A stretch of DNA of 64,000 nt from IMG/VR virus record IMGVR_UViG_3300035665_000023, positions 1-64,000 of that record; one strand, written 5' to 3'. Both the position numbers and the translations under genes were made by a program. Under the pieces are notes generated by a model. That model was not told where the DNA came from and did not search any database. It was given only the letters and a program-made list of their open reading frames with translations. The DNA comes from a virus. Positions 28,599-38,897 of this stretch are shown here, in pieces. The first letter of the stretch is position 1, and each line of letters opens with the position of its first letter.

Positions 28599-29446
28599 GT
28601 AAAATCCTCCAAATCCAACTTTGCGAAACGGGGTTGCGGCAACTCAACCGGCTTAGCGTCAAGAAATGACGCCAAGTCGAAATGATTCATTTCATCGACG
28701 AGCATGACCAAACGCGCCTCTGCGTCGTCCAGCCAAGTGTCGGGTATGCGATAAGGTGTGACTCGATAGCTTCCAGATGAACGGATCGCGACAACATAAA
28801 TTTCTGGATCGGCACCGAACAGATTGCGGTATCCGCGCCGATACAACGAAAGACGAACGTCATAGCCCATGCCCGCCGCATCGTTGGCAAAGCTTCTCGT
28901 GTCGGTTTTGTTGGTCGTCTTCCAGTCAATAAGCAATGGACCGGCAATACAGTCCGCTTTCATCCGGCATGGGCCGAGATAATCGTCATCCCAAACGTGA
29001 ACCTTTTCCAGTCCGCCTTCAGCCCGAGCAACATCCAGCGAAGTTCTGCAAAACGTATTGGATTGCAAGTGGTTCCATATCTCAGCCAACGGATTGCGTT
29101 CTCCCGGCTTGAAATAAACAAGAGCCTCATTCGCCGCCTTCCACGCCGTCCAAGCCTTGCCCTTGCAATGGCCGTCGTCGTTCAGGACGTTGGCAGGAAT
29201 CTCCATCGCCAACCCGTCCCATCCACCTCGTTCCGCGCAAAGATGAACAGCAGTGCCAAACTCCATGGCTGGCGAAACTTCCTTTTTCCAACGTGGGTCC
29301 GCTTTGTAGCTGCCCCACCACTCCAGCGGATCCCGCAAATACATCGCAACTTCAGAAGACGACAATTCAGGCCGCGAATGGTAGTCCACGTTTGGATCCA
29401 CTGACGTTAGCTTTTCGAGAACTTCCACAATGCTCATAAATGACAA
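28595..29446 (-). CDS. PD-(D/E)XK exonuclease (RecE/ExoVIII, DUF3799-like)
   Basis: YHSRPELSSS, FGTAVH, KAD...IDWKTT, GYDVRLSLY. Confidence 0.85.
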   Translation of the reverse strand: MSFMSIVEVLEKLTSVDPNVDYHSRPELSSSEVAMYLRDPLEWWGSYKADPRWKKEVSPAMEFGTAVHLCAERGGWDGLAMEIPANVLNDDGHCKGKAWTAWKAANEALVYFKPGERNPLAEIWNHLQSNTFCRTSLDVARAEGGLEKVHVWDDDYLGPCRMKADCIAGPLLIDWKTTNKTDTRSFANDAAGMGYDVRLSLYRRGYRNLFGADPEIYVVAIRSSGSYRVTPYRIPDTWLDDAEARLVMLVDEMNHFDLASFLDAKPVELPQPRFAKLDLEDFT

Positions 29447-29480
29447 CTCCCATCACTAACACGTATCGATAACAAACCAA

Positions 29481-29556
29481 AACGAGGAGCAGGAGTTGAA
29501 CCTGCAACGCGGCTCGCCCGATAGCCGCTGTTTTGCCTGGATTAAACTACCCTCGT
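29481..29556 (-). tRNA. tRNA-like element with an enlarged anticodon loop (pseudo-tRNA?)
   Basis: Acceptor ACGAGGG/TCCTCGT, D stem GTTT/AAAC, GCGGC-N10-GCCGC anticodon arm, T arm GCAGG-TTCAACT-CCTGC; no encoded CCA. Confidence 0.6.
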
Positions 29557-29668
29557 TGCCATTACAAAAACCCGAGCATCCACGCTGCCAACGCCAGGAT
29601 CGAGCACCACACAATCAATCCTGACACAACAAACTGAATGATCGGAACCTCTGCAAACTCATCGTCAT

Positions 29669-30019
29669 TCATCGCGCAACACCTTCGTGCTTCGCAATCG
29701 CCTCCATAGCTCGCTTCGTCCAATCCGTAGGAACGTTGACGATGTCTACGCAGTCCACGCTGGTCGAATACTGCATGCAGCCCAATATCAGCTTCAAGCA
29801 ATACGACAATTCCTCGGCCTCTCTTGCGTGAGGCGGATCAATCACCTCCTCCGTCACCGTCACCTCCGTTTTGACGACCATTTCGCCACGCAGCACCCGC
29901 ATCGCTCGAGGTGCCTCAATACCAAGCTGCACTCGGTTTCCAGAGATCTCCACGACACGGACACTTGCGTCCGGTCCAAGCTTGATCGACTCGCCGTTCT
30001 TCCTTGACAAAACCAACAT
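29669..30019 (-). CDS. csrA: CsrA (carbon storage regulator) with a C-terminal extension
   Basis: MLVLSRKNGESIKLG...VVEISGNRVQLGIEAP...VLRGE; AAGGAG RBS. Confidence 0.9.
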   Translation of the reverse strand: MLVLSRKNGESIKLGPDASVRVVEISGNRVQLGIEAPRAMRVLRGEMVVKTEVTVTEEVIDPPHAREAEELSYCLKLILGCMQYSTSVDCVDIVNVPTDWTKRAMEAIAKHEGVAR

Positions 30020-30044
30020 TTAGGCTGCTCCTTTTTCGTAAACT

Positions 30045-30079
30045 AAAAAACGCCCGGCCTGCACCATGCAGACCGAGCG
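30045..30079 (-). terminator. Intrinsic terminator upstream of csrA
   Basis: Minus strand CGCTCGGTCTGCA-TGG-TGCAGGCCGGGCG-TTTTTT. Confidence 0.75.
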
Positions 30080-30098
30080 ACGGTAGCCCCGCCAGGAA

Positions 30099-30308
30099 CT
30101 ACTTGTTTCGTTGTTTCGCTACCCACTGAACCAAAGCAGGGCGTTTTTTCCCCTTCCAAGCAAATCGCTCCAATCGATCAAGAGCTTTCTCGTCTCCGTT
30201 GATCGCGCGATTGATCACGCTCCAGCCGAGAGACTTGGAAACTCGCCAAAGCAACATGTACTCTGCGCCGAACCGTGTTTTGCTTGACTTGTCCAAATGA
30301 GTAACCAT
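30099..30308 (-). CDS. Hypothetical protein, possible first gene of the leftward operon
   Basis: 69-aa basic ORF ending just before the terminator. Confidence 0.5.
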   Translation of the reverse strand: MVTHLDKSSKTRFGAEYMLLWRVSKSLGWSVINRAINGDEKALDRLERFAWKGKKRPALVQWVAKQRNK

Positions 30309-30444
30309 GATGAAAGACTGTATCGGCGTTCACTAGTGATTGCAACAGCATCCGTTAGCGATTGCGCCTTGATTGCGCCGGAAATGCTTGTGGCGTAACC
30401 AGTTGAAGCTTGGAAAATTTTTTCAAAATGGTTACATTTTTTGC

Positions 30445-30798
30445 ATGGGCGGAACACCTGAACCAAAAAAAACGGAAGCGGTCACAGCACAGCAGCTTTC
30501 TGCGTTAGCGGCTGACCTGAAAGAATTTGCGGCAAAGCTGGAGTTGGCTGCGAAAGTCGCGATGGAGCAAGAAGGTCAAGTAATCGCTTTGTATAACTTG
30601 CGTTCTGCAGTTACATCGGTAACGGCATTGCAGCGGTTCGTCGCAAGAGCGGATGAGCATCGCCGTGCAGCGCAGCTTGGAAAACCCGTTCCGGTTGGAC
30701 AACCCAAACCGCGATCGGCGACTGCACGCAAGCCAACTGTCGCAGCAGCAAAAGAAACGCTTGCGAAAGCCAGACAAAAAAAGAAACCTGGAAACTAG
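30445..30798 (+). CDS. Hypothetical protein with a Lys/Ala-rich tail (possible regulator)
   Basis: MGGTPEPKK...; divergent from the leftward operon. Confidence 0.6.
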   Translation: MGGTPEPKKTEAVTAQQLSALAADLKEFAAKLELAAKVAMEQEGQVIALYNLRSAVTSVTALQRFVARADEHRRAAQLGKPVPVGQPKPRSATARKPTVAAAKETLAKARQKKKPGN

Positions 30799-31205
30799 GA
30801 GTCTTTTGACACCTTCCACTCCGAGGGCATTGCTTGACCGCTCGGCCACAGCATGCACCCTACTGTGCGATCGTGCCGAGCCCAACGCAGAGCAAAGATT
30901 GCCGCATCTCGCACGCTGACTCGTCGCATCAGCAATACGATTTCCTGGCTCTCTGGATCGGCCAGCAGAACATCCGTTTTGCATTGCCGCACTCTTGGCC
31001 GTTTTCCTTTTGCGGCCATGTCGCGACCCATCTTAAACGCGCGAACTGCCGACTCCACTAGCGTTACACGATCCTGTCCTCGCCTGTCCACATACCGAAT
31101 TTCCCACATAGCTGACTCTTTCATAAATGGTGATTTTGATGACAGCGGGATTTTTTTCGCAAGATTGACACGTCTGGTCATCTCTTGACTTACTTTCCAG
31201 TTCAT
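30795..31205 (-). CDS. Hypothetical protein
   Basis: ORF convergent with the previous gene; start uncertain. Confidence 0.45.
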   Translation of the reverse strand: MNWKVSQEMTRRVNLAKKIPLSSKSPFMKESAMWEIRYVDRRGQDRVTLVESAVRAFKMGRDMAAKGKRPRVRQCKTDVLLADPESQEIVLLMRRVSVRDAAIFALRWARHDRTVGCMLWPSGQAMPSEWKVSKDS

Positions 31206-31264
31206 CGCATATTTAGTGCATCTCCTTCGGTAGCCCCGCCAGGTTTTTGACCGAGGGGAGAAAC

Positions 31265-31513
31265 ATGGAAGACATTCTGACGATCGCAGAAGTCGCTGAT
31301 CGACTTCGCTGTTCTGTTTCTACCGTGCGGCAGCATATCGCACGCGGTCGGCTTGCTGCCGTCAACCTTGGGACCGGAGGTCACAAGCACTACCGGATCA
31401 CCGAGTCGGCACTCGCTGACTTTCTCCAGTCAGCCCCTCAATTGGCAACTTCTCTGCCTCCTGCACCCAAGCTGTCTATCAACACTTCGCGATTCATGAA
31501 GCGACTTGGTTGA
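31265..31513 (+). CDS. Excisionase-type HTH protein
   Basis: ILTIAEVADRLRCSVSTVRQHIARGRL...YRITESALADFL; GGAG RBS. Confidence 0.85.
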   Translation: MEDILTIAEVADRLRCSVSTVRQHIARGRLAAVNLGTGGHKHYRITESALADFLQSAPQLATSLPPAPKLSINTSRFMKRLG

Positions 31514-31815
31514 TGATAATGCGAACGAAAACACCGATCGAATTACTCGAAGATTTAGCCTACGAAAGCGAGTCGATCGCGGTCAAAGCTAGATTGGCGA
31601 TTGTCATCGCGCACATTCAGACTATGGAGCAGCAACGGATCGAAATGCGGTATCGGCAAATCGCGGTGCTGCAAGGAATCAAGCTTTTGGCTTCCTGGCA
31701 TTATGACCCAGAAGCGAATTTCGATGATGTGTCGCCAGACGATCAGGTAGCGCATGTTAATGCAAGGATTGTCTGGGAGTGCGATATGGCGTTGCGAGAA
31801 CTTGGGGTGAATTAG
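31510..31815 (+). CDS. Hypothetical protein
   Basis: ORF coupled to the xis-like gene. Confidence 0.6.
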   Translation: MMIMRTKTPIELLEDLAYESESIAVKARLAIVIAHIQTMEQQRIEMRYRQIAVLQGIKLLASWHYDPEANFDDVSPDDQVAHVNARIVWECDMALRELGVN

Positions 31816-31846
31816 GTAAAGAAATAGGTAAAGAAATAGGTAACAA

Positions 31847-31946
31847 GGATCGGTGGACTAGACGACGGCGTTTTGCGCCGAGAGAGCAGAAACGGTATCT
31901 GTAGCCACGTCGGCTGTCTTTGCAGGTTCGAGTCCTGCCCGATCCA
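31847..31946 (+). tRNA. tRNA-like element (100 nt) with atypical D and variable regions
   Basis: Acceptor GGATCGG/CCGATCC-A, T arm GCAGG-TTCGAGT-CCTGC, internal hairpins CGGCG/CGCCG, GCAGA-AACGGTA-TCTGT and AGCC/GGCT. Confidence 0.55.
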
Positions 31947-31950
31947 TTGA

Positions 31951-31975
31951 GACGAACGCTAATCAATTGTTATGC
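31951..31975 (-). other. Collapsed attC (both cores kept, L boxes and stem deleted)
   Basis: GACGAAC-GCTAATCAATT-GTTATGC. Confidence 0.6.
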
Positions 31976-31992
31976 GGTTTGGAGGTTTGATA

Positions 31993-32196
31993 ATGGCACA
32001 ATTTACGTACAGAGACAAGTTGATAATCATGCAGGAGCAAGCCATGTGGATCGTGGCAAACATCTTGCGAGACGAAGCATCATCGGTAGATCACACTTGG
32101 CAGGCTCGAATTCGGAAGCTGTCGGAAGAATCGCGACAAATCGCACAGGAGCTACGCGATCACAACGAACAGTTTGAAGAAGAGGACGACGAGTAA
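31993..32196 (+). CDS. Cassette 1 gene: small helical acidic protein
   Basis: GGAGG RBS, MAQFTYRDK. Confidence 0.7.
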   Translation: MAQFTYRDKLIIMQEQAMWIVANILRDEASSVDHTWQARIRKLSEESRQIAQELRDHNEQFEEEDDE

Positions 32197-32199
32197 TCC

Positions 32200-32288
32200 G
32201 CATAACGCACAAAATCACCGGGTTGCCGCCGGTGAGTATCGATTGAAAAACAGCCGGACGGCAACTCCGGTGCATTTTTTTGTTATGC
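32200..32288 (-). other. attC site 1
   Basis: GCATAAC...CACCGGGTTGCCG / CGGCAACTCCGGTG...GTTATGC, 89 bp. Confidence 0.85.
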
Positions 32289-32348
32289 CATGCCGAACCA
32301 TTTAAGGTTACCTACAGTTGTAGTGCGGCGTTCCTTTGGAGCGATGCC

Positions 32349-32834
32349 ATGCAGTTGTATTTTGACGATCATTATCCAAATGTCCCGAATTACTTTATTC
32401 GTCGTTCGGATCTTCAGCCGCGTCACATGCCGGAGTATTCAGCCGTGTACATCGTTATAGATCGACAACGAAGAGTCGAGTATGTGGGAGAAACCAAGAA
32501 CCTTCGGCATCGCATAAGTGAACACGGCGGTTTTTCACACAACAGCGGTATTGCATGGATCAACGTTGACAGTTCGATGTTGGCTTTTACCGAGTGCTGG
32601 TTTATTGCGACGCTAAGACCTTACAGGAACGGTACGCAACGGAAGTATTTGAAAGATTGCTCACGCTCAGCAGTCGTCGATAGAACGATTCATCGTTTGT
32701 GGGTTGTTGGTCGCCACGTTCGTCTTTGCGACGGGACGAGCGGTTTTATTGATAGGGTTTACGAGTCGTCGAAGCGCATCGTGGTGAATGGCGTTTCGTA
32801 TAGAATATGTCAGGCAACTGTGACATTGGCATAA
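32349..32834 (+). CDS. Cassette 2 gene: GIY-YIG nuclease domain protein
   Basis: SAVYIV...EYVGETKNLRHRISEH...E...IATLRPYRN; the stop lies in the attC2 core. Confidence 0.75.
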   Translation: MQLYFDDHYPNVPNYFIRRSDLQPRHMPEYSAVYIVIDRQRRVEYVGETKNLRHRISEHGGFSHNSGIAWINVDSSMLAFTECWFIATLRPYRNGTQRKYLKDCSRSAVVDRTIHRLWVVGRHVRLCDGTSGFIDRVYESSKRIVVNGVSYRICQATVTLA

Positions 32835-32919
32835 CGCTTGGGTTCACGGGGCCGCGAGGAAAAAACTATGAACAAATCAAACGACGTTGACGCGGCTCCC
32901 GTGCAACCCATTGTTATGC
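32829..32919 (-). other. attC site 2
   Basis: Minus strand GCATAAC-AATGG-GTTGCACG...CGTGAAC-CCAAGC-GTTATGC: canonical 7-5-8...7-6-7 geometry. Confidence 0.9.
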
Positions 32920-33443
32920 GTTTCTGTTACGCAGATCCGCCCTACCTTGGATGTGGCAAGAAGCTGTATGGCGACATGCACGAACAGGCAGCAGATTGGG
33001 ACAACCCCGAGAGGCATAGCCAATTGGTAGAGCAATTGTGCGACGAGTTCCCAGACGGTTGGGCAATGTCGTTGCATAGCCCGAGCCTGCGGACGATTCT
33101 TCCAATGTGCCCAGAGGATTGCCGTGTAGCAGCATGGGTGAAACCATTCGCAGTGTTCAAAGCGAACGTAACGGTAGCGTATGCGTGGGAACCAGTCATC
33201 TTCCGTGGCGGTCGGAAACGACCGCGAACGATGCCAACTGTTAGAGATTGGGTCAGCGAGTGCATTACGTTGAAGAAGGGTTGCCCTGGGGCAAAACCCG
33301 AGGGGTTTAGTATGTGGCTGTTCGACCTGTTGAACATGGAACCGCAAGACGATTTCGTTGATATGTTTCCCGGCAGCGGGAGCGTGCAAAAGGCGTGGGA
33401 CAAGTTTCGCCACACGCCGATGCTGCCACTGGAATACGCATAA
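32868..33443 (+). CDS. Cassette 3 gene: amino-DNA methyltransferase-like protein
   Basis: YADPPY catalytic motif and DMFPGSG SAM-binding motif; the start codon lies inside attC2. Confidence 0.8.
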   Translation: MNKSNDVDAAPVQPIVMRFCYADPPYLGCGKKLYGDMHEQAADWDNPERHSQLVEQLCDEFPDGWAMSLHSPSLRTILPMCPEDCRVAAWVKPFAVFKANVTVAYAWEPVIFRGGRKRPRTMPTVRDWVSECITLKKGCPGAKPEGFSMWLFDLLNMEPQDDFVDMFPGSGSVQKAWDKFRHTPMLPLEYA

Positions 33444-33526
33444 CGCTAGCGGTAACCGAATCGCCGCCAAGAGACTCGGCTTGAGAACTAGGTGACCGGC
33501 GACTTCGGTTCACCGCTTTGTTATCC
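33438..33526 (-). other. attC site 3
   Basis: GCATAAC...GCGGTAACCGAATCGCCG / CGGCGACTTCGGTTCACCGC...GTTATCC, 89 bp. Confidence 0.85.
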
Positions 33527-33546
33527 CAAAGTTTAGAAGGTGAGCC

Positions 33547-33765
33547 GTGGCTGGTTGGCAACCGATTGAAACCGCACCGAAAGACGGCACAAAGATTTTG
33601 GGATGCGATAGTAATGGTGAACTTGCCGTTGTGCATTGGGATCAAAATTTAGTTCGTGGCTTGAAGGGTTTTCAGATTGGAATTGGCGGAGTGAATTGGA
33701 ATTGGTTGCAACATTATTTTATACCAGTAATGTGGCAACCATTGCCTAATTCACCTGATGGATAA
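33547..33765 (+). CDS. Cassette 4 gene: DUF551-like phage protein
   Basis: WQPIETAPKDGTKIL...WQPLP. Confidence 0.8.
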   Translation: MAGWQPIETAPKDGTKILGCDSNGELAVVHWDQNLVRGLKGFQIGIGGVNWNWLQHYFIPVMWQPLPNSPDG

Positions 33766-33849
33766 CGCTCGGATTCACCGAGCCGAAAGGAAAGAGGTAA
33801 ACGAGAATGAGCGATACGAATGAGGCTTCGGTGCAATCCGTTGTTCGTC
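33760..33849 (-). other. attC site 4
   Basis: GGATAAC...CGGATTCACCGAGCC / GGCTTCGGTGCAATCCG...GTTCGTC, 90 bp. Confidence 0.85.
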
Positions 33850-34064
33850 GGCTTTTGGCTAACGACCAATTGAGGAAGATCTACGATGTTGACGAAGATA
33901 CGTTGTGGGAGTGCTTGCGAGTTCTTGCTCGCATGGTGCGGGACAAGACGATTGATGCAGACAAGGCATTGAAGGCCGAAGCAGAGCGAAGTCGTCCACG
34001 GTCTGTAGGAAATCAGTTGTTTGAGGCCGCAATGCGAGATTTTGAGCGAGACGGTATTCGTTAG
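33807..34064 (+). CDS. Cassette 5 gene: hypothetical protein
   Basis: RBS and ATG inside attC4. Confidence 0.65.
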   Translation: MSDTNEASVQSVVRRLLANDQLRKIYDVDEDTLWECLRVLARMVRDKTIDADKALKAEAERSRPRSVGNQLFEAAMRDFERDGIR

Positions 34065-34068
34065 GTCG

Positions 34069-34157
34069 GACGAACGGTAGCCGTCAGCGGGCGGCGAAAG
34101 GAAGATTAACCATGTCGAACGACTCTGCCGCCGCTCCGTTGCACGGCGTTGTTCTAC
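34069..34157 (-). other. attC site 5
   Basis: GACGAAC...GCCGTCAGCGGGCGGCG / CGCCGCTCCGTTGCACGGC...GTTCTAC, 89 bp. Confidence 0.85.
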
Positions 34158-34450
34158 TGCCATGTCCCTTTTGCGGAGGCGAGGCAGTAGAGTGCTATCA
34201 ACGTGACGACCTTGACGATTGGAAGATTGAGTGCAGTGGGTGTGGTGCAGTATCGTGTCCAGATGGGATGCGGTACGACAAGCATTTGGCAATTAAAGAT
34301 TGGAACACGCGAATCGTCAAAGGCGTGCGAACAGTGTTCAGTTACGAAATGTTCGGCAAGATCGGATTCGTATGGATGGCAAGAACCGGTGGGGAAATGT
34401 ACGGCCCATGCTTGTCGCTAGACGAATTGTACTCCGATTTAGGTCAGTAG
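34112..34450 (+). CDS. Cassette 6 gene: Lar-family (restriction alleviation) zinc ribbon protein
   Basis: LLPCPFCGGEA...IECSGCGA...AIKDWNTR; ATG inside attC5, TAG inside the attC6 core. Confidence 0.8.
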   Translation: MSNDSAAAPLHGVVLLPCPFCGGEAVECYQRDDLDDWKIECSGCGAVSCPDGMRYDKHLAIKDWNTRIVKGVRTVFSYEMFGKIGFVWMARTGGEMYGPCLSLDELYSDLGQ

Positions 34451-34536
34451 AACGCTGGCAATCACGGGGCCGCGACCGTGAAAGCCAGCCATCAGAAAAG
34501 ACGTTGACGCGGCTCCCGTGCATTGCTTTGTTCGTC
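34447..34536 (-). other. attC site 6
   Basis: GTAGAAC...GTTCGTC, 90 bp; arms nearly identical to attC2 (TCACGGGGCCGCGA; GACGTTGACGCGGCTCCCGTGCA). Confidence 0.9.
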
Positions 34537-34554
34537 GTCCTTGGAGGTTTGATT

Positions 34555-34818
34555 ATGAGAGTCGCAGAGTTGATTGAAGAGTTGAAGAAGTTACCACCAG
34601 AGTCGGAAGTCATCCTCCAGAAAGACGCGGAAGGTAATGGGTACAGTCCATTGTACAAAGTGGATGGTAATGCCATTTACATAGAGGATTTGGCATGGAG
34701 TGGCAAAGTCGTTTCGACGGAGTGGTCGGCCTGCGATGCATGTTACGAGTCAGAGGAAGAGTGGGAAGCATTTAAGGCGTCGAATCCGCGTTGCTGTGTT
34801 TTGGCACCAGTGAACTAG
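34555..34818 (+). CDS. Cassette 7 gene: small phage protein
   Basis: GGAGG RBS; MRVAELIEELKKLPPESEV...DAEGNGYSP. Confidence 0.75.
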   Translation: MRVAELIEELKKLPPESEVILQKDAEGNGYSPLYKVDGNAIYIEDLAWSGKVVSTEWSACDACYESEEEWEAFKASNPRCCVLAPVN

Positions 34819-34822
34819 GTAG

Positions 34823-34911
34823 GACGAACGCTGGCGATGACCCAGCCCGAAAGGAGATTTCAAAATGTCAGAAACCAGTAATGAGGGCTTGGGTCCATCG
34901 TATCGTTCTAC
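34823..34911 (-). other. attC site 7
   Basis: GACGAAC...CGATGACCCAGCCC / GGGCTTGGGTCCATCG...GTTCTAC, 89 bp. Confidence 0.85.
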
Positions 34912-35161
34912 GTCCAAGCGGTGTGAGTTTGTTTATGAAGTCGAAACAGCACTGCGTTCCGTAACCCATGAATGTCGATTGGCTAATGCCGTAGAAATCA
35001 GTTACGAGATTCGAGATGGCGAAGGTTTTATTCGGATCGTGTCGGTAGAAGATAAAGCGGATGCGAAAGCGTATCGTGCGTTGAGAAAATTGTTTAGCCG
35101 TCCCGACCAGATGAGATTGGACATCGCGCCAGTCTGGGATTCGCGAAATATCGGGCAGTAG
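34865..35161 (+). CDS. Cassette 8 gene: hypothetical protein
   Basis: AAGGAG RBS and ATG inside attC7; TAG inside the attC8 core. Confidence 0.7.
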   Translation: MSETSNEGLGPSYRSTSKRCEFVYEVETALRSVTHECRLANAVEISYEIRDGEGFIRIVSVEDKADAKAYRALRKLFSRPDQMRLDIAPVWDSRNIGQ

Positions 35162-35247
35162 AACGCACAGGATAACCCAGTGCGAGAAAGGAAAGTAGCA
35201 ATGACAGAAGACACTAACGAGCACTTGGGTTCATCCGATTGTTCGTC
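35158..35247 (-). other. attC site 8
   Basis: GTAGAAC...GGATAACCCAGTGC / GCACTTGGGTTCATCC...GTTCGTC, 90 bp. Confidence 0.85.
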
Positions 35248-35476
35248 GGCTTTTAATGTGCTCTCGCGAATGCTTGAATCTGGATGTGACTTGCATAAGC
35301 AATCGGGCATTTGCTGGATACATGATTGGGCTGGTCGATGTTTAGCAGAAGCAAAGACGCTTACCGACATGCGAGAACAATTGGAGCGATTCGACATCGA
35401 AGCACACGAACGTCGCTACAAGGCTAGGTGCGATTGGTATGCAAAAAACAGGAACAAGCTTTTAGGTCGGCAGTAA
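35201..35476 (+). CDS. Cassette 9 gene: hypothetical protein
   Basis: AAGGA RBS and ATG inside attC8. Confidence 0.65.
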   Translation: MTEDTNEHLGSSDCSSAFNVLSRMLESGCDLHKQSGICWIHDWAGRCLAEAKTLTDMREQLERFDIEAHERRYKARCDWYAKNRNKLLGRQ

Positions 35477-35480
35477 GTCC

Positions 35481-35531
35481 GACGAACAAGTATTATATGG
35501 AATTGACCATATCACCGTGTTATGTGGAATT
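35481..35531 (-). other. attI-like site
   Basis: Terminal core (minus strand GTTCGTC) without an attC hairpin, preceded by direct repeats TTAT(A/G)TGGAATT at 35493-35504 and 35520-35531. Confidence 0.6.
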
Positions 35532-35584
35532 CAATATATCCTGGGTTTGCGAGTCTTTGCACGACTCGCAGGGACCGGAAACGC

Positions 35585-35800
35585 TGGCACCAAAACGGCA
35601 CCAAACGAGTGATTTTGATACGATTTCCACAGCAATGGCACCATTGAAAAGCAGCAAAAACGCAGGAAATTGCGAGGATTTTTGCGTTGACATCGTTGAG
35701 GTCACAGATTCGAGTTCTGTACCGCCCACTAGGGAAAACGCTGAGAAAACGAACAAAACGACTGAACGATAAATGGTGCCCGGCACCAAAATTGGCACCA
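35585..35800 (+). other. attP: core equal to the 3' half of tRNA-Val(GAC) (35685-35730), flanked by integrase arm-type sites
   Basis: CGTTGACATCG anticodon arm, ACAGA-TTCGAGT-TCTGT T arm and ACCGCCCA acceptor strand, with no 5' half. Paired GGCACCA repeats at 35585-35605 and 35781-35800; adjacent to int. Confidence 0.85.
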
Positions 35801-35813
35801 GCGATTTTCAGAT

Positions 35814-36890
35814 TTGTTTGAGTTGCTGACCATACGTGTCAATCGCATGGCAAAATCTAGGCTCATGCGTAAACCATTTTTTCGTAAAGCAAGGCAGTGC
35901 TGGTACGTCAAGGATGATCAAGGGCACTTCATACGTCTGGATCCAGACGAGAAGAAGGCGTTCGCGATTTGGGAACGTCTGCGGAACATTGCGGACTACC
36001 AGCACCATGACGCAACGCTGGAGGCGATCTGCGAGGCGTTCCTAAAGCACCATGAGCCGGAGCTGAGTAAGGTTAGGTTTGCTGATTTGACTTGGATCCT
36101 AGAGGAATTCGCTTTGTGGTTCGGCCCGACCCGACTGGCTCGAGAAGTTGGCAAGGCAGATGTGTTGCGATGGATGCGGTCGGAGCGGGATTTGCGAGGT
36201 GGTCGAGGTGTTTGGTCGGCAGCTCGGCAACGGGACGCTGGGCACACGGTAAAGCGAGTGCTGGACTGGGCAATCAGGCGGCAATACTTGCCCTGGTCGG
36301 ATGTAACGGAGATGCGGCTCCCAAGCCCAGAACCTCGGGACGAAATGATTTGCTACGCAGATCACTGCCGTCTAATCGGTGGGTGCAAGGCACGAAAATC
36401 ACGTCCGTTTCGATTGGTGCTAATTGCACTGAGGTTATCGGGGGCACGGCCCGCACAAGTGCGGGAGTTGACGGCTAGCAACGTGATCGGGGATAGTTGG
36501 GTGTTTCGTCGGCACAAGACAAGTGCGAAGACGGGTAAGCCGTTGGTGGTTCGCTGTGGGCCTTGCCTGCAGACCCTGACGCGGATATTGACTCACGCTA
36601 GACCCAGCGGCCCAATGCTTCTATCGGCCCATCGCAAGCCTTGGCCGAAGGATGGGATCGTTCTTCGTTTTCGTCGCCTTCGAGAAGCGGTTGGGCTAGA
36701 CGGGGTCACGGCCTATTCGTATCGGCACACCTACGCGACAGATGCACTGCAGGCGGGTATCTCGCTGCCGACCGTTGCAGCGTTGTTGGGACATGTCAAC
36801 CCGACGATGGTTTCGCGAGTGTATGGGCACCTGGAAAAGCGATCGGATCACCTGAGTGATGCGGTCGCTAAAATCAAACGGGCTGAGTGA
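35814..36890 (+). CDS. int: Tyrosine integrase (true start probably 35847 or 35865)
   Basis: SGARP, HKT, YSYRHTYAT, LLGH and RVYGH catalytic motifs; N-terminal KPFFRKARQCWYV arm-binding-like segment. Confidence 0.92.
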   Translation: MFELLTIRVNRMAKSRLMRKPFFRKARQCWYVKDDQGHFIRLDPDEKKAFAIWERLRNIADYQHHDATLEAICEAFLKHHEPELSKVRFADLTWILEEFALWFGPTRLAREVGKADVLRWMRSERDLRGGRGVWSAARQRDAGHTVKRVLDWAIRRQYLPWSDVTEMRLPSPEPRDEMICYADHCRLIGGCKARKSRPFRLVLIALRLSGARPAQVRELTASNVIGDSWVFRRHKTSAKTGKPLVVRCGPCLQTLTRILTHARPSGPMLLSAHRKPWPKDGIVLRFRRLREAVGLDGVTAYSYRHTYATDALQAGISLPTVAALLGHVNPTMVSRVYGHLEKRSDHLSDAVAKIKRAE

Positions 36891-37131
36891 GATGCTGGGC
36901 TTTGCGAAGAACTTCAAGCTTTCGGATTGCCGCCCGAAGGATGGTGTAGACAACTACGTTTTCGTCAATTTCAGCCGAACCCGAGTACACAAACGAACCA
37001 ATCAATAGCGACCTTCTGTCCTTACGCAGAACGGTCCCGAACACCTCGAACACGATGTGCTGCTCGCCTTCGGAATGGTCGTCAAAAACGACCGCAACAA
37101 CGTCACCAAGATTGCATGGTGTTCGCATCAT
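36874..37131 (-). CDS. Hypothetical protein
   Basis: VAVVFDDHS motif; coupled to the phosphoesterase gene. Confidence 0.6.
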   Translation of the reverse strand: MMRTPCNLGDVVAVVFDDHSEGEQHIVFEVFGTVLRKDRRSLLIGSFVYSGSAEIDENVVVYTILRAAIRKLEVLRKAQHLTQPV

Positions 37132-37994
37132 TTCGCCCTCATTGTCTCGAACTTGACCCGCTCCGATCGTTCATCCCAAAAAAACCGTAGCCAGGCTGAG
37201 CCCAGTGCCTTTGGCCCGAGCATTCGCTCGACTTCCCAACCAGCGTGTCCGTCGCCCCATGCGTCTTTGTATCCTGGGCATCGAACGTGCAATTGCTCAT
37301 CGTGATACAACCCGCCTCTTGAGCTAATCCTTTGGCGCGGAATTGTAAAAGACCACTCATCGTGAGTATGACCCGTTAGCACGATGTCTGCGTCAGGAGT
37401 GAATGTCGCTATTCTCGATGGTTGGAGCGTCCCCTTGGTGATAATCCCTCCACCACCCGACCCATGGTAGTGATAAAGAAATTTGGAATCCTTGATGCGG
37501 CTTTCAGAGGCAATAAAACGAAATACGACCCAACCACCGTAGCCACTAGACTCGACAATGCCTCCTTGCTGTCGCATTTGAGAAACAAGTCGATCGGTAA
37601 GGTCGGTTTCGTGTTGCTTTGCAATTGCTGTTTCATGGTTGCCTCGACCCATAACTGCAAAGTGTTGCAAATATGGCTTGTAGAACTCAGCAGCAGTTTC
37701 GACGATCAAGTCAAAATAGTTATTCCCTTGGTGCTCCGGTCGCAACGCACTTTTATCTGCACGTTTATCCCAACGCCCCTGCATTACGCAGTGCAAGTCT
37801 CCGTTGTCCAAAATCGGTGCGTTGTATTCAACCGCTTCGTCGAGGTGCTTCCGCTCAAGCGCCTGATTGCATTTTGGGTTGTCGTGGTGAACGTCGCTGC
37901 GGAGCAAGACCCATTGCTCCCAGTCCGTCCGTTTTGACACCTCAACCCTGATTTCGACAACATTTTTCGCCAGCTTGCGTAGCGACCATGACAT
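37128..37994 (-). CDS. Calcineurin-like metallophosphoesterase
   Basis: SDVH, NGDLH, GNHE, HYHG and GHTH motifs; GGAGG RBS before MSWSLR. Confidence 0.9.
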   Translation of the reverse strand: MSWSLRKLAKNVVEIRVEVSKRTDWEQWVLLRSDVHHDNPKCNQALERKHLDEAVEYNAPILDNGDLHCVMQGRWDKRADKSALRPEHQGNNYFDLIVETAAEFYKPYLQHFAVMGRGNHETAIAKQHETDLTDRLVSQMRQQGGIVESSGYGGWVVFRFIASESRIKDSKFLYHYHGSGGGGIITKGTLQPSRIATFTPDADIVLTGHTHDEWSFTIPRQRISSRGGLYHDEQLHVRCPGYKDAWGDGHAGWEVERMLGPKALGSAWLRFFWDERSERVKFETMRAK

Positions 37995-38231
37995 GCGTCT
38001 TCCTCCGTGCAAGAGCACCGCAATAAAGGCTTCAATTGTCGCGATTCTGTTGTTAAAATCAAAAAAGTTGCGTTGATGGAAAATCATGAATGAAACGCAA
38101 TAGGCACTACTCCAATTTGTGTTTTTTCCGCGAATTGTGAATAATCATTGCAATTGTCGATTGCTGCAAAAAGTCAAGCTTGCAAATCTCACAGTTTATT
38201 ACCTATCAATTACTGCGAAAATCAGAAGAAA

Positions 38232-38897
38232 ATGAATACGCACTACACGCAAAACGCTTCAGTTCCGAATCATCGTTACGGACTGGTGTCGAGAGCGATT
38301 TTGACAGGCATGGACATTTCTCAGGCAAACAGTTTTGAGCGGTGCGTAATTTTTGGAGTAACTAGCGTTCCATCTCGCGCTCTTATGTTTTCAATTATGT
38401 GCGAGTCTGGTGCGCAATGGGCAAGGATTCCATTGCACATGCTGCGACATGAGGAGCCAAGAAAAACTGACGCTCCAGTGCATTCGCTTTGCGAGCTGCA
38501 GATGTGGGATAATCACGGGTGGGAGTTTTCAATAACCTGCTACGAGTATCTCCGCGACATGTCTTGCTCTTTTATGAAGCGAGATGGTTCATCTGTTCCT
38601 GCAAGCTATTGGTTTACGCTAGATCACACGGAAAACGGATGGAGTCTTTATCCACCAGAACATAAGTGCTATCACCTTTTATTCCTTGAGGACGGTTCCG
38701 GTCAGATCGCAGCTCAGCCAAACAATCGGATTCGATGGAAAGACGACTCGTTTACTAATCACAAACTGCCATTAAATTACCGTGTCATGGGAGAGCAAAC
38801 TTGGCACGCTGAAGTGAGTCGAGTCAATGCGCAAGACACTGCATTTACACAAGAGGATTTAAGTAAACATATCAACAACATAGTTGTGGCGTTGTAA
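38232..38897 (+). CDS. Conserved phage hypothetical protein
   Basis: WARIPLH, LQMWD, YWFTLD, EHKC and AAQPNNRIRW motifs. Confidence 0.75.
   Translation: MNTHYTQNASVPNHRYGLVSRAILTGMDISQANSFERCVIFGVTSVPSRALMFSIMCESGAQWARIPLHMLRHEEPRKTDAPVHSLCELQMWDNHGWEFSITCYEYLRDMSCSFMKRDGSSVPASYWFTLDHTENGWSLYPPEHKCYHLLFLEDGSGQIAAQPNNRIRWKDDSFTNHKLPLNYRVMGEQTWHAEVSRVNAQDTAFTQEDLSKHINNIVVAL

Follow-up and report, generated by a model that had tools for sequence, protein, structure and literature searches.

Clusters of integron attC sites without an integron integrase (CALINs) have been known in phages since 2023. In the parts drawn on here, Qi et al. 2023 (PMC9892861) report 17 CALINs in 10,705 NCBI phage genomes, recombination by IntI1 of five of the six phage attC sites tested, and the proposal that phages gain cassettes countering host defence. 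Their example phages are those of Tetrasphaera, Polaribacter and Pseudoalteromonas. A sequence-only reading of the present locus had stated that integrons are described mainly from chromosomes, plasmids and transposons; this has to be qualified, since phage integron parts are already published in that work (PMC9892861). The locus reported here lies in a stretch of 64,000 nt (the window), positions 1 to 64,000 of the 73-kb phage record IMGVR_UViG_3300035665_000023. It shares with the CALINs of Qi et al. 2023 (PMC9892861) IntI-less attC clusters in a phage genome and DNA methyltransferase cargo, but the published examples have 2–3 attC sites, whereas the window has eight full sites and two end sites. 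The same parts of that article mention no planctomycete phage (its supplementary tables may list more), no comparison of related phages, and neither inverted polarity nor start codons inside attC; they state no match between phage and host attC families except for the Vibrio capture cases.

Sedentary chromosomal integrons (the Vibrio superintegron type, here those of Pirellulales) have the same attC family as the phage, sites highly similar within a lineage, a chimeric-core footprint and single-gene cassettes. They differ from the phage array in that the host arrays have intI or intI remnants, host genes lie on the top strand (23 of the 25 decided units), and the listed gaps between host sites are mostly 400–900 nt, against a viral median of 289 nt. 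Loot et al. (bioRxiv 10.1101/2022.09.11.507474) showed that IntI1 can insert cassettes in E. coli at non-att genomic sites, termed attG, which would offer a possible route for a host IntI to seed a phage array; a further likeness is that viral arrays close with a half core, xxxxAAC, followed by non-attC-like sequence. The PeSLs of T4-type phages (PMC2839356, PMC4122927) are stem-loop repeats that likewise flank single accessory genes of hypervariable regions and are associated with gene shuffling, but they are described there as composite promoter-terminator motifs.

Layout of the array and anatomy of its sites

Region 31951–35540 of the window is a CALIN. It probably belongs to the accessory region of a temperate phage with a Pirellulales-type planctomycete host. 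That the array sits in a genuine phage is supported by several markers in the record, namely a terminase, proteins of portal-like and polyvalent type, and an integrase accompanied by an attP-like region; 46–50 nt of identity to tRNA-Val are the one clue to the planctomycete host. The sequence-only reading had described eight hairpin elements of 89–91 nt between nine single-gene units; the site coordinates and the ORF list agree with it. The features are given below, with site scores from a covariance model, R1, that was itself built from the array sites.

31847..31946, + strand: tRNA-like gene directly left of the array (Rfam tRNA, 28.1 bits)
31951..31975, + strand: left boundary, degenerate site (R' core GACGAAC, 11 nt, R'' core GTTATGC)
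31993..32196, + strand: cassette gene 1, ORF of 67 aa, no family
32200..32288, + strand: site S1, 89 nt (bottom strand on +), R1 79.4 bits, fold z −5.3
32349..32834, + strand: cassette gene 2, GIY-YIG nuclease domain protein, 161 aa (PF01541)
32829..32919, + strand: site S2, 91 nt, R1 91.1 bits, loop with SD-like motif and ATG (32868) of gene 3
32868..33443, + strand: cassette gene 3, putative DNA methyltransferase, 191 aa (DPPY motif; PF02086)
33438..33526, + strand: site S3, 89 nt, R1 76.9 bits
33547..33765, + strand: cassette gene 4, ORF of 72 aa, no family
33760..33849, + strand: site S4, 90 nt, R1 77.2 bits, loop with SD-like motif and ATG (33807) of gene 5
33807..34064, + strand: cassette gene 5, ORF of 85 aa, no family
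34069..34157, + strand: site S5, 89 nt, R1 83.5 bits, loop with SD-like motif and ATG (34112) of gene 6
34112..34450, + strand: cassette gene 6, Lar-family restriction alleviation protein, 112 aa (PF14354)
34447..34536, + strand: site S6, 90 nt, R1 86.2 bits, moves together with gene 7
34555..34818, + strand: cassette gene 7, ORF of 87 aa, no named family
34823..34911, + strand: site S7, 89 nt, R1 78 bits, loop with SD-like motif and ATG (34865) of gene 8
34865..35161, + strand: cassette gene 8, ORF of 98 aa, no family
35158..35247, + strand: site S8, 90 nt, R1 84.3 bits, loop with SD-like motif and ATG (35201) of gene 9
35201..35476, + strand: cassette gene 9, ORF of 91 aa, no family
35481..35540, + strand: right boundary, half core GACGAAC followed by a fixed end element
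35577..35813, + strand: attP-like region, GGCACCA repeats and a tRNA-Val(GAC) 3' fragment (about 35685–35731)
35814..36890, + strand: phage tyrosine integrase, 358 aa (PF00589, 50.7 bits)

Read on the + strand, the sites begin with AAC, end with GTT, and have bulges at positions 16 and 23 separated by a 6-bp stem. According to Nivina 2016 (PMC5027507, as far as drawn on here), an attC bottom strand has AAC in the 5' R' box and, in the L'' arm, bulged bases at positions 16 and 23/24 that flank a 6-bp stem. S1–S7, which share a common hairpin fold, follow these rules on the + strand, so that the attC geometry proposed from sequence holds and the minus strand had been correctly chosen as the attC top strand. 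In S2 the bulges are C and T, in the 3' arm. Two canonical features are absent: the bulged base at position 16 is C instead of the usual G, and the central spacer is almost fully paired (2–3 and 1 unpaired nt versus 5–6 per arm). Taken singly, four of the eight sites (S1, S2, S3 and S7; z −3.1 to −6.2) fold better than all 200 shuffles; S4, S5, S6 and S8 have z of −0.9 to −2.6. Compensatory changes were found at 15 of 24 modelled pairs, a covariation score as high as that observed was reached in none of 500 shuffles, and in the 73-kb record R1 matches only the eight array sites. These results support the view that the sites behave as integron attC sites.

Two of the earlier gene calls were confirmed: GIY-YIG for gene 2 (Pfam 25 bits, cut-off 22.6) and Lar for gene 6 (Pfam 44.8 bits; TIGR03655 42.7 bits, cut-off 39.6; also phrog_599). 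The DNA methyltransferase call for gene 3 stands in a weaker form, with a DPPY motif present and a PF02086 score below the cut-off (17.1 versus 22 bits). Homologues of gene 3 occur in 76 viral loci; those outside cassettes start at the ATG inside a GTTATGC core. The assignment of gene 4 to DUF551 was dropped, as the gene matched no family in Pfam (E ≤ 5), NCBIfam or PHROGs.

The tRNA-like gene scores below the Rfam gathering score of 29, has an insertion of about 37 nt and was not called by ARAGORN. It is kept beside the array in two related phages (L069 and L003) and is probably outside the mechanism.

Core footprint and cassette turnover

In all nine gene units, the 7-nt cores on the two sides of the gene are exact reverse complements of each other (p = 2e-4 for random pairing of the window cores), over four core types (ATGC, ATCC, CGTC and CTAC), and in five units the match extends to 9 nt. 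Within the sites themselves, the cores do not match in six of eight (S3–S8). Both patterns had been noted in the sequence-only reading and were found as described. The same complementarity across the gene was seen in every one of the 15 adjacent site pairs of the window and two relatives (L002 and L003), and in five of five units of L069. At least 202 sites of the window family occur in other IMG/VR loci, whose contigs may include host DNA; in 36 such viral loci 103 of 125 unique units, with 42 different cores, are complementary, and 81 of these 103 reach at least 9 nt.

Each unit is interpreted as one mobile cassette. The + strand is the attC bottom strand, the one that folds and recombines, and crossover would take place in the AAC at the 5' end of every site. 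On this reading a cassette comprises, in order, the attC hairpin, the GTT core and the gene, and its end lies in the next xxxxAA.

Three related phages share flanks with the window but carry other cassettes. In L002 and L003 the flanks are 83–85% and the integrases 89–90% identical to those of the window, and none of their cassette genes matches a window cassette. L069 has cassettes 1 and 7 in common with the window, in a new context: gene 1 (97% aa identity) is followed by a different site, and gene 7 (98.9%) has different neighbours both upstream and downstream, with S6 identical except for three letters in the variable part of the R' core. Single sites recur elsewhere as well, each with 92% identity: S3 in L002 between other genes, and S8 in L003 joined to another gene. 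L089 and L090 share a gene at 96.6% identity; of the attC bodies around it, the upstream one is 95% identical between the two loci and the downstream one 58%. In the pair L068/L131, the gene is 98.5% identical and the attC bodies differ on both sides; therefore, exchange also took place at the GTT side, or attC bodies were replaced. A gene order and content fixed among relatives, which would speak against cassette exchange, was not found: content varies in L002, L003 and L069.

Cassette-skipping junctions, which had been proposed as a check, were found in lake metagenome contigs, where they fall at AAC cores and join cassettes differently. Logan contigs from four lake-water runs contain five in-register R'-to-R' joints (31954>33442, 32201>33762, 33440>33763, 34071>35161 and 34822>35481), which come from short contigs with a shorter side of less than 30 letters in three of five, and may stem from other organisms or repeats. 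In the first joint, the AAC core of the left boundary, an element identical in L069, leads straight into the S3 body. Run X24 has the right-boundary element directly after the R' cores of S1 and S7, and in run X16 cassette depth ranges from about 2 to about 880.

Host integrons and the source of the integrase

A model search found no IntI gene in the 73-kb record and none over the cut-off in five other array-rich viral records, four of which are incomplete; the identity of the enzyme is therefore inferred. The phage does have an attC array, as the sequence-only reading claimed, but as a CALIN without its own IntI rather than a complete integron, and most likely served by a host IntI. R1 sites number 96, 32, 5, 40 and 19 in five planctomycete genomes and 0, 2 (weak), 0, 0 and 0 in five non-planctomycete genomes. 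Several of the planctomycete sites adjoin true integron integrase genes, which in one genome score 417 and 396 bits, above the curated cut-off. Among 81 genomes of the order Pirellulales, R1 sites occur in 12 of 15 with an IntI-like gene versus 13 of 66 without (p = 1.9e-5). At the noted loci with R1 beside intI, the complement of the R1 strand points away from intI in nine of nine. All host loci had been selected from the best-scoring R1 matches. Host cassettes are single genes with the chimeric-core footprint seen in the phage. The adjacency to true intI and the varying content of relatives agree with the earlier claim that the sites are recombined.

It could be argued that the phage tyrosine integrase or another phage enzyme recombines the sites, with the right boundary as its attI, in a self-contained and merely integron-like system. 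About 330 nt separate the integrase gene from the array end; the gene shares the strand of the R1 sites and is placed relative to them as intI is in six host loci, and the right boundary is indeed a fixed end with variable cassettes beside it. We nevertheless regard this as highly improbable. The integrase scores 23–24 bits on the IntI model TIGR02249 against a cut-off of 265, which rules it out as IntI; its best PDB relatives are Xer-like, and it has a typical attP-like region with repeats and a core whose 46–50 nt match the 3' ends of tRNA-Val genes from planctomycetes at 100% identity. It is an ordinary tRNA-Val lysogeny integrase, and the attP-like region is outside the cassette system. 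The L069 array ends with the same right-boundary element beside a helicase gene, with no integrase within the 9.7 kb examined; a relative of the phage integrase occurs in only 2 of 79 other viral loci, within the stretch examined; and the identical site family adjoins true intI in hosts. The right-boundary element, which is not attC-like and contains two similar repeats, may by its position be attI-like or attG-like. The end types of other viral arrays differ.

Based on the above results, we suggest that the array is very probably a phage CALIN whose mobile cassettes are most likely cut out, inserted and swapped by the IntI of the host that the phage lysogenises or infects; the chromosomal integron of that host would have the same attC family. 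The idea that phages exchange cassettes through integron recombination is thus supported.

Inverted polarity and start codons in attC loops

Judged by the longest ORF, 12 focal and 79 other viral units have their gene on the R1 strand, and 0 and 5, respectively, on the opposite strand; in host units the counts are 2 and 23 (Fisher p = 8e-18). Polarity was ambiguous for 41 of the 125 viral units and 10 of the 35 from hosts. The opposite-strand ORFs of hosts carry real domains, e.g., ADP_ribosyl_GH at 208 bits. Phage cassettes are therefore inverted relative to those of hosts, their genes being carried by the attC bottom strand. In 9 of 18 focal, 84 of 197 other viral and 1 of 20 host sites, the loop contains an ATG whose ORF extends beyond the site; none of these 20 host sites has an SD-like motif in its loop. 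About half of the phage attC loops thus appear to hold the ribosome site and start codon of the next gene. Translation would then start in the attC loop, and the 3' arm of the hairpin would encode the first 12–16 residues of the protein.

Both features bear on the possibility that the array is a piece of a host chromosomal integron captured passively, in the style of Vibrio anguillarum phages, with neither a phage-specific pool nor ongoing exchange. The attC family is the same as that of the hosts, and temperate phages are known to have captured fragments of chromosomal integrons (Qi et al. 2023, PMC9892861). However, a captured piece would hardly have the opposite gene polarity (91 versus 5 in viral, 2 versus 23 in host units) or loop starts that are common in viral sites (93 of 215) and rare in host sites (1 of 20). 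The viral cargo is phage-typical (Lar, GIY-YIG and HNH nucleases, DNA methyltransferases, a Mom-like protein), and four related phages have arrays that share a position and differ in content. Passive capture is accordingly a very unlikely explanation.

Least probable is that the hairpins act mainly at the RNA level, as translation start modules, stabilisers or terminators, and are shuffled by homologous or illegitimate recombination. This would fit the SD-like motif and ATG in half of the loops and the formation of the hairpins in mRNA, expected because the genes lie on the same strand, and PeSL-type shuffling is a known phage precedent (PMC2839356, PMC4122927). Yet homologous recombination between repeats gives no reason to expect cores that are specific to each cassette and pair across the gene while the rest of the hairpin pairs within the site. 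Nor would it lead one to expect bulges at positions 16 and 23, or the same family beside host intI with genes on the other strand; neither promoter-like nor terminator-like motifs are enriched over shuffled sequence. To our knowledge, PeSLs lack both AAC/GTT chimeric cores and the attC bulge geometry, and they have no link to host integrons. A regulatory role of the hairpins is compatible with the integron-cassette explanation.

The presence of integron sites of host-chromosome type between phage genes suggests that these genes are swapped by the host's integron enzyme, and the exchange may be ongoing at present. Two features of this system seem to be new: phage cassettes that are inverted, and attC loops that would carry a ribosome site and start codon.

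Structure of the sites and complementarity of their cores

Region 31951–35540 of the window contains eight sites of 89–91 nt (S1–S8), which lie between nine + strand ORFs of 67–191 aa (cassettes 1–9), so the division into eight hairpins and nine single-gene units made by the sequence-only reading is borne out. The sites fall within the length range of attC sites (57–141 nt), with sequence-variable loops of about 25–40 nt. All eight have AAC/GTT triplets in inverse 7-nt cores, xxxxAAC at the start and GTTxxxx at the end; AAC, G8 and GTT are the alignment columns without variation, and the RYYY consensus is only loosely kept in the cores (e.g., GCAT, GACG, GTAG). S1–S7 share one hairpin fold. 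When single sites were folded against 200 shuffles, four of the eight beat all of them (z = −0.9 to −2.6 for the remaining four). In the eight-site alignment, compensatory changes were found at 15 of 24 modelled pairs, and none of 500 shuffles reached the observed covariation. An Rfam scan of 29000–38500 gave tRNA-type matches only; Rfam has no attC family. We built a covariance model, R1, from S1–S8. It matches the eight sites of the window, six in L002 and four in L003 (two related phage contigs), all on the gene strand, and finds no further site in the window or the last 9 kb of the record (E ≤ 1).

According to the excerpts of Nivina et al. 2016 (PMC5027507), the recombinogenic bottom strand of attC carries an AAC triplet within the 5′ R′ box, cleaved between A and C. 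The L″ arm has extrahelical bases at positions 16 (usually G) and 23/24 (a conserved T), the 6-bp stem between them is required, and the central spacer has 5–6 unpaired nt per arm. On the + strand of the window, the 5′ arm reads xxxxAACG, then come 2–3 unpaired nt and three stems, each about 6 bp long. In S1–S7 two single-base bulges, C and T, interrupt the 3′ arm, with an intervening stem of 6 bp (7 bp in S3); in S2 they lie at positions 16 and 23, counting from the 3′ end. S8 has the same bulge layout in the alignment, and it is absent from its minimum-energy fold. Because the AAC position, the bulges and the stem match the rules of Nivina et al., the + strand is the attC bottom strand, and the minus strand was correctly taken for the top strand by the sequence-only reading. 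Two departures from the rules are seen on the + strand: position 16 has C instead of the usual G (position 23 has the conserved T), and the spacer is almost fully paired, with 2–3 unpaired nt on the 5′ arm and 1–2 nt on the 3′ arm, the rest being a 5–6-bp stem. Since host sites matched by R1 look alike, the paired spacer is a lineage trait.

The cores within each of S3–S8 do not match, as had been noted for six of the eight sites. Nevertheless, in all nine window units GTTxxxx left of the gene is the exact reverse complement of xxxxAAC right of it, with four core types; this earlier observation held, with p = 2e-4 under random pairing of the window cores. The complementarity reaches 9 nt in five of the nine units. 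Taken together, the window, L002 and L003 keep to the rule in 15/15 adjacent site pairs, and a third related contig, L069, does so in 5/5 units; the last unit of L002 has one core mismatch by eye. In other viral arrays, among the matches listed, 103 of 125 units showed exact 7-nt complementarity, extending to at least 9 nt in 81, with 42 different cores. Host arrays followed it in 22 of 35 adjacent pairs, and some of the failures are probably due to missed intervening sites. The chimeric cores are the footprint of site-specific exchange at the cores, as expected of circular cassettes with the crossover in the triplet.

Host integrons, the phage integrase and the array ends

R1 was run on five planctomycete genomes reached via tRNA-Val loci and gave 96, 32, 5, 40 and 19 matches at E ≤ 0.01, in arrays; five genomes from outside the planctomycetes that share the tRNA fragment yielded 0, 2 (weak), 0, 0 and 0. 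The planctomycete genome G001 encodes two IntI above the curated cut-off (417 and 396 bits); both full-length genes lie at contig ends, and the arrays beside them are not readable. IntI-like genes or remnants directly adjoin R1 sites in G001 and in a second planctomycete genome, G002. Among 81 genomes of G001's order, 25 had R1 sites, 15 had IntI-like genes (E ≤ 1e-40) and 12 had both (Fisher p = 1.9e-5). IntI above the cut-off was present in 10 of the 81, and nine of these had R1 sites. An array beside an integron integrase was found in host genomes only. R1 sites adjoin intI or its remnants at nine noted loci (genome:contig G002:C3, G001:C31, G001:C85, G064:C86, G070:C45, G076:C1, G060:C53, G028:C82 and G038:C3). 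The layout is divergent at six of them, and at the other three intI has the same direction with the array 3′ of it. As the complement of the strand matched by R1 reads away from intI at all nine, this is an independent mark of the R1 strand as the bottom strand. The window sites and the attC sites of host integrons are one family.

The record is rated complete by CheckV (73,017 bases). Its phage markers include the large terminase subunit (phrog_5989), a portal-like protein that narrowly misses the cut-off (28.7 bits) and the polyvalent protein listed here with the recombinase beside the array:

35814–36890, + strand, right of the array: tyrosine recombinase of 358 aa (PF00589)
38925–53048, − strand: polyvalent protein of 4707 aa in a single ORF; domains: ART-PolyVal ADP-ribosyltransferase (91 bits) and mycobacteriophage L5 gp82

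Polyvalent proteins are of a kind found in phages and conjugative elements. Other features of the record include a CsrA homolog (29669–30019, − strand; PF02599, 65.9 bits), and tblastn found CsrA-like genes in 8 other viral loci with at least one R1-family site, among the loci listed. A tRNA at 29480–29557 (− strand; Rfam 38.6 bits) was given by ARAGORN a four-base anticodon, 'cggg', and no amino acid; it has a 9-nt stretch against 6 in the model. A 676-aa protein (56710–58740, − strand) has a weak Erv1/Alr sulfhydryl oxidase match (23.1 bits vs. a cut-off of 27.6).

The recombinase beside the array is not an integron integrase. On TIGR02249, the curated IntI profile that spans the IntI-specific extra domain, the phage integrase scores 23–24 bits, far below the cut-off of 265, and aligns with profile positions 252–304 only. 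Against IntI4 in PDB 2a3v it gives E = 0.0068 over 58 residues, and Xer-like chains match better. The sole tyrosine recombinase match in the 73-kb record is that of 24 bits on TIGR02249, and no intI was found beside the array. The reading as non-IntI agrees with Cury et al. 2016, in an excerpt of which phage-type integrases beside a few attC sites are not counted as IntI. With eight full and two end sites and no IntI in the record, the array is a CALIN (two or more serial attC sites with no nearby IntI).

Between the array and the integrase lie GGCACCA repeats and a stretch of 46–50 nt. In MAGs of Pirellula, Pirellulaceae and Planctomycetaceae the 3′ ends of tRNA-Val(GAC) genes are 100% identical to this stretch, and those of Omnitrophota 93.8%. 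Together with the integrase, the repeats and the tRNA-Val stretch make up an attP and integrase module of the ordinary kind. No close relatives of this integrase were found in the genome contigs searched, so the planctomycete host is a probable one, assigned from the tRNA-Val fragment. On 8-kb stretches around 36 tRNA-Val loci R1 gave one weak match (E = 0.42), with no integrated phage copy there. Some Pirellula/Pirellulales contigs (L020, L023, L026) have a second tRNA-Val 3′ fragment without a full tRNA, and in two loci (L018 and L010) integrases 26–30% identical to that of the phage adjoin tRNA-Val. tRNA-Val appears to be a common integration site.

The left boundary of the array is GACGAAC, 11 nt and GTTATGC. 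One metagenome joint shows that in other genomes its AAC core leads on to an ordinary S3 body. A tRNA-like gene (31847–31946, + strand) immediately adjoins the array on its left; its variable region carries an insertion of about 37 nt. The gene is conserved in both L069 and L003, scores 28.1 bits with the Rfam tRNA model, just below the gathering score of 29, and is not called by ARAGORN. The right boundary is a half core with an element of about 55 nt that has two similar repeats and is not attC-like; it is conserved in L069, and the cassettes beside it vary. Other viral arrays, among the matches listed, likewise close with a half core whose complement is the last GTT core, and the sequences that follow are of several kinds, none of them attC-like. 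Several end elements recur (in L086, L089, L123, L106; L003, L068, L131; L113, L062), e.g., TTTGAATTATC...GTGATATC; GATAGATTCTCC...GGGGAGAA; AATTTATTAACCTGCGC..., each with internal inverted or direct repeats, and they may be distinct attI-like sites. The intI-proximal end in hosts (L058 = G002:C3; L179 = G001:C31) is a full attC-like hairpin with a flank conserved between the two genomes (GTTCAAG TAAGCCGC...). The phage end element is unlike this sequence and, given that hosts have an attC-like site and its conserved flank there, is no copy of it. Candidates for its identity are an attI belonging to a different IntI lineage and an attG-type non-att insertion site, such as those described in the excerpt of Loot et al. 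(bioRxiv 10.1101/2022.09.11.507474).

Cassette turnover and the probable side of the crossover

The site family is common. R1, run on pattern-scan candidates from IMG/VR, whose contigs may include host DNA, matched at least 202 sites in at least 79 viral loci, and the array stretch was present in 24 lake-water metagenome runs (0.54–0.90 of sampled words).

L002 and L003 have integrases 89–90% identical to the phage integrase, and both of their array flanks are 83–85% identical to those of the window; between the flanks they match the window in the hairpins alone. L069 has in common with the window the left gene, the tRNA-like element, the left boundary and cassette 1 (97% aa identity). Then follow three other cassettes, cassette 7 (98.9% aa) and the same type of right boundary beside a helicase gene. 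Fixed gene order among relatives had been named by the sequence-only reading as evidence against integron recombination; cassette content differs in L002, L003 and L069, and cassettes are turned over among these related phages.

The comparisons also indicate which hairpin travels with which gene. Site S6, upstream of cassette 7, is the same in the window and L069 but for 3 letters in the variable part of the R′ core, and both neighbours of this unit differ. Cassette 1 in L069 has kept the left boundary and has a different downstream site. Between the loci L089 and L090 a gene is 96.6% identical, its upstream attC body 95% and its downstream body 58%. The pair L068/L131 stands against simple linkage: the gene is 98.5% identical, the attC bodies differ on both sides, and the loop-encoded leaders, two different ones, join at GTTCGTC. 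Unrelated genes can also have similar attC bodies upstream; an example is S8, seen in the window as well as in L003 and L069.

For four of the lake-water runs, Logan contigs were aligned to the array stretch. Depth varied widely between cassettes of a single run: in X16, it was about 5 for cassettes 2–3, up to about 880 for cassette 4, about 2 for cassette 8 and about 50 for the integrase flank. The skipped-cassette junctions that had been proposed as a check were sought, and five in-register R′-to-R′ joints between different sites were found (31954>33442, 32201>33762, 33440>33763, 34071>35161 and 34822>35481), all on short contigs and three of them with fewer than 30 letters on the shorter side; joints from an R″ core to an R′ core with unknown letters in between were left out. 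Excised circles, which had been proposed as a check as well, left no junction in these contigs, where none would be expected to show. The five joints share 5–7 letters, always including AAC. In the run X24, loose ends pass straight from the R′ cores of S1 and S7 into right-boundary sequence. We regard these joints as support for, not proof of, exchange at the cores.

In a canonical cassette, with attC downstream of the gene, the crossover would lie at the + strand GTT core. This possibility was rejected, as the bulges are on the 3′ arm. Also against it are S6 and the L089/L090 site, which move with the downstream gene, the clean metagenome joints, 5/5 of which are R′-to-R′, and the loop-encoded starts (see below), which stand in two reading frames relative to GTT. 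We suggest instead that the enzyme is a host IntI, which would work in trans on the + strand in its folded form and cleave the 5′ AAC between A and C. The moving unit would be attC, then the gene, ending in the next xxxxAA. Some exchange may also occur at the GTT side, or attC bodies may be replaced.

Inverted polarity, putative translation starts and cargo of the cassettes

Based on the longest ORF, 23 units of the host arrays are opposite to the R1 strand, 2 are on the same strand and 10 are ambiguous. Two of the opposite-strand ORFs have strong Pfam domains, ADP-ribosylglycohydrolase (208 bits) and DUF7010. In the window, L002 and L003 together, 12 units are on the R1 strand, none is opposite and 3 are ambiguous. 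Other viral units after duplicate removal, among the matches listed (125 units, 36 loci), gave 79, 5 and 41, respectively. The contrast between phage and host polarity has a Fisher p of 8e-18, under a longest-ORF rule that leaves many units ambiguous and with host loci picked from top-scoring matches. Phage cassettes are inverted relative to host cassettes, with the gene on the attC bottom strand.

Five of the eight window sites (S2, S4, S5, S7 and S8) have an SD-like motif and an ATG in the loop. The ORF opened by this ATG crosses the 3′ arm and the GTT core and continues as the gene, so that the hairpin arm encodes leaders such as MSDTNEASVQSVV. The window, L002 and L003 have loop starts in 9 of their 18 sites, each accompanied by an SD-like motif; among the matches listed, 84 of 197 other viral sites have one, 66 of them with the motif. 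In hosts, one of 20 sites has a loop start, and that one is without the motif. The attC loop itself appears to supply the translation start of the following gene, and translation would start in the loops. A scan for promoter and terminator motifs gave no excess over shuffles. Two ideas on the inversion can be offered: a cassette with its own start module might need no integron promoter, and, when the gene is on the bottom strand, the non-template strand exposed in transcription might be the strand that folds for recombination.

The GIY-YIG and Lar genes named in the sequence-only reading were both recovered: window cargo includes a GIY-YIG nuclease domain protein and a Lar-family restriction alleviation protein. 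Its DNA methyltransferase stands in part, as a methyltransferase-like protein with a DPPY motif but weak Pfam support and, in a PDB sequence search, no real match; its DUF551 protein was not supported. The remaining six window proteins are small and without a named family. Proteins 1, 4, 5, 8 and 9 have no PHROGs or Pfam match, and protein 7 has weak matches to unnamed PHROGs only. A peptide-pattern search found no close relatives of the Lar and GIY-YIG proteins in viral contigs. Among the matches listed, 86 other viral cassette proteins include DNA methyltransferases (N6_N4 in 2, C-5 in 1, and further PHROG methyltransferase families), a Mom-like, two PAPS-reductase-like and a queuine tRNA-ribosyltransferase-like protein, and HNH and GIY-YIG nucleases; most of the 86 are without a family match.

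In viral contigs, 76 loci are homologous to the methyltransferase-like gene. R1 sites flank only the 8 closest homologs (79–83% identity) and none of the 68 more distant ones. The homologs outside cassettes (loci L190–L258) start, with M(K/R)FAYADPPY, exactly at the ATG inside the GTTATGC core (32913–32919), and the stop codon of the cassette gene lies inside the GCATAAC core (33438–33444). Stop codons are inside the xxxxAAC core in five of the nine window cassettes. The position of the cores on start and stop codons is a hint of how cassettes might arise from phage genes.

Integrons are known as bacterial gene-capture platforms. The general idea of integron parts in phages has already been published by Qi et al. 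2023 (PMC9892861), whose excerpts report a screen of 10,705 phage genomes with 3 integrons, 1 In0 element and 17 CALINs, methyltransferase cargo, and recombination by IntI1 of 5 of the 6 phage attC sites tested. In the literature searched, mostly titles and abstract openings, we did not find inverted cassette polarity, translation starts inside attC, planctomycete-phage arrays, large hypervariable arrays compared among relatives or a match to a host attC family.

On balance, we lean towards the view that planctomycete phages keep their own pool of inverted cassettes apart from the host pool. The upstream attC hairpin would serve as a translation start module (SD and ATG in the loop, a leader from the L″ arm, and some cores over start or stop codons), and the host IntI would be hired to shuffle accessory genes, including those for DNA modification and anti-restriction.

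The array represents an environmental phage lineage with large, fast-turnover cassette arrays that use the host's own type of recombination site, and its annotated cargo comprises DNA modification and anti-restriction genes and homing-type nucleases. The methyltransferase-like cassette, in which the cores coincide exactly with the start and stop codons of a gene common in phages, bears on how cassettes form, and the attC loop, which appears to supply the translation start, bears on how they are expressed without an integron promoter. In an excerpt of a recent preprint, chromosomal integrons figure as reservoirs of anti-phage defence cassettes. If phages do have a pool of inverted cassettes of their own, it would be the phage-side mirror of bacterial integrons stocking such cassettes, and new cassettes would be made from phage genes.
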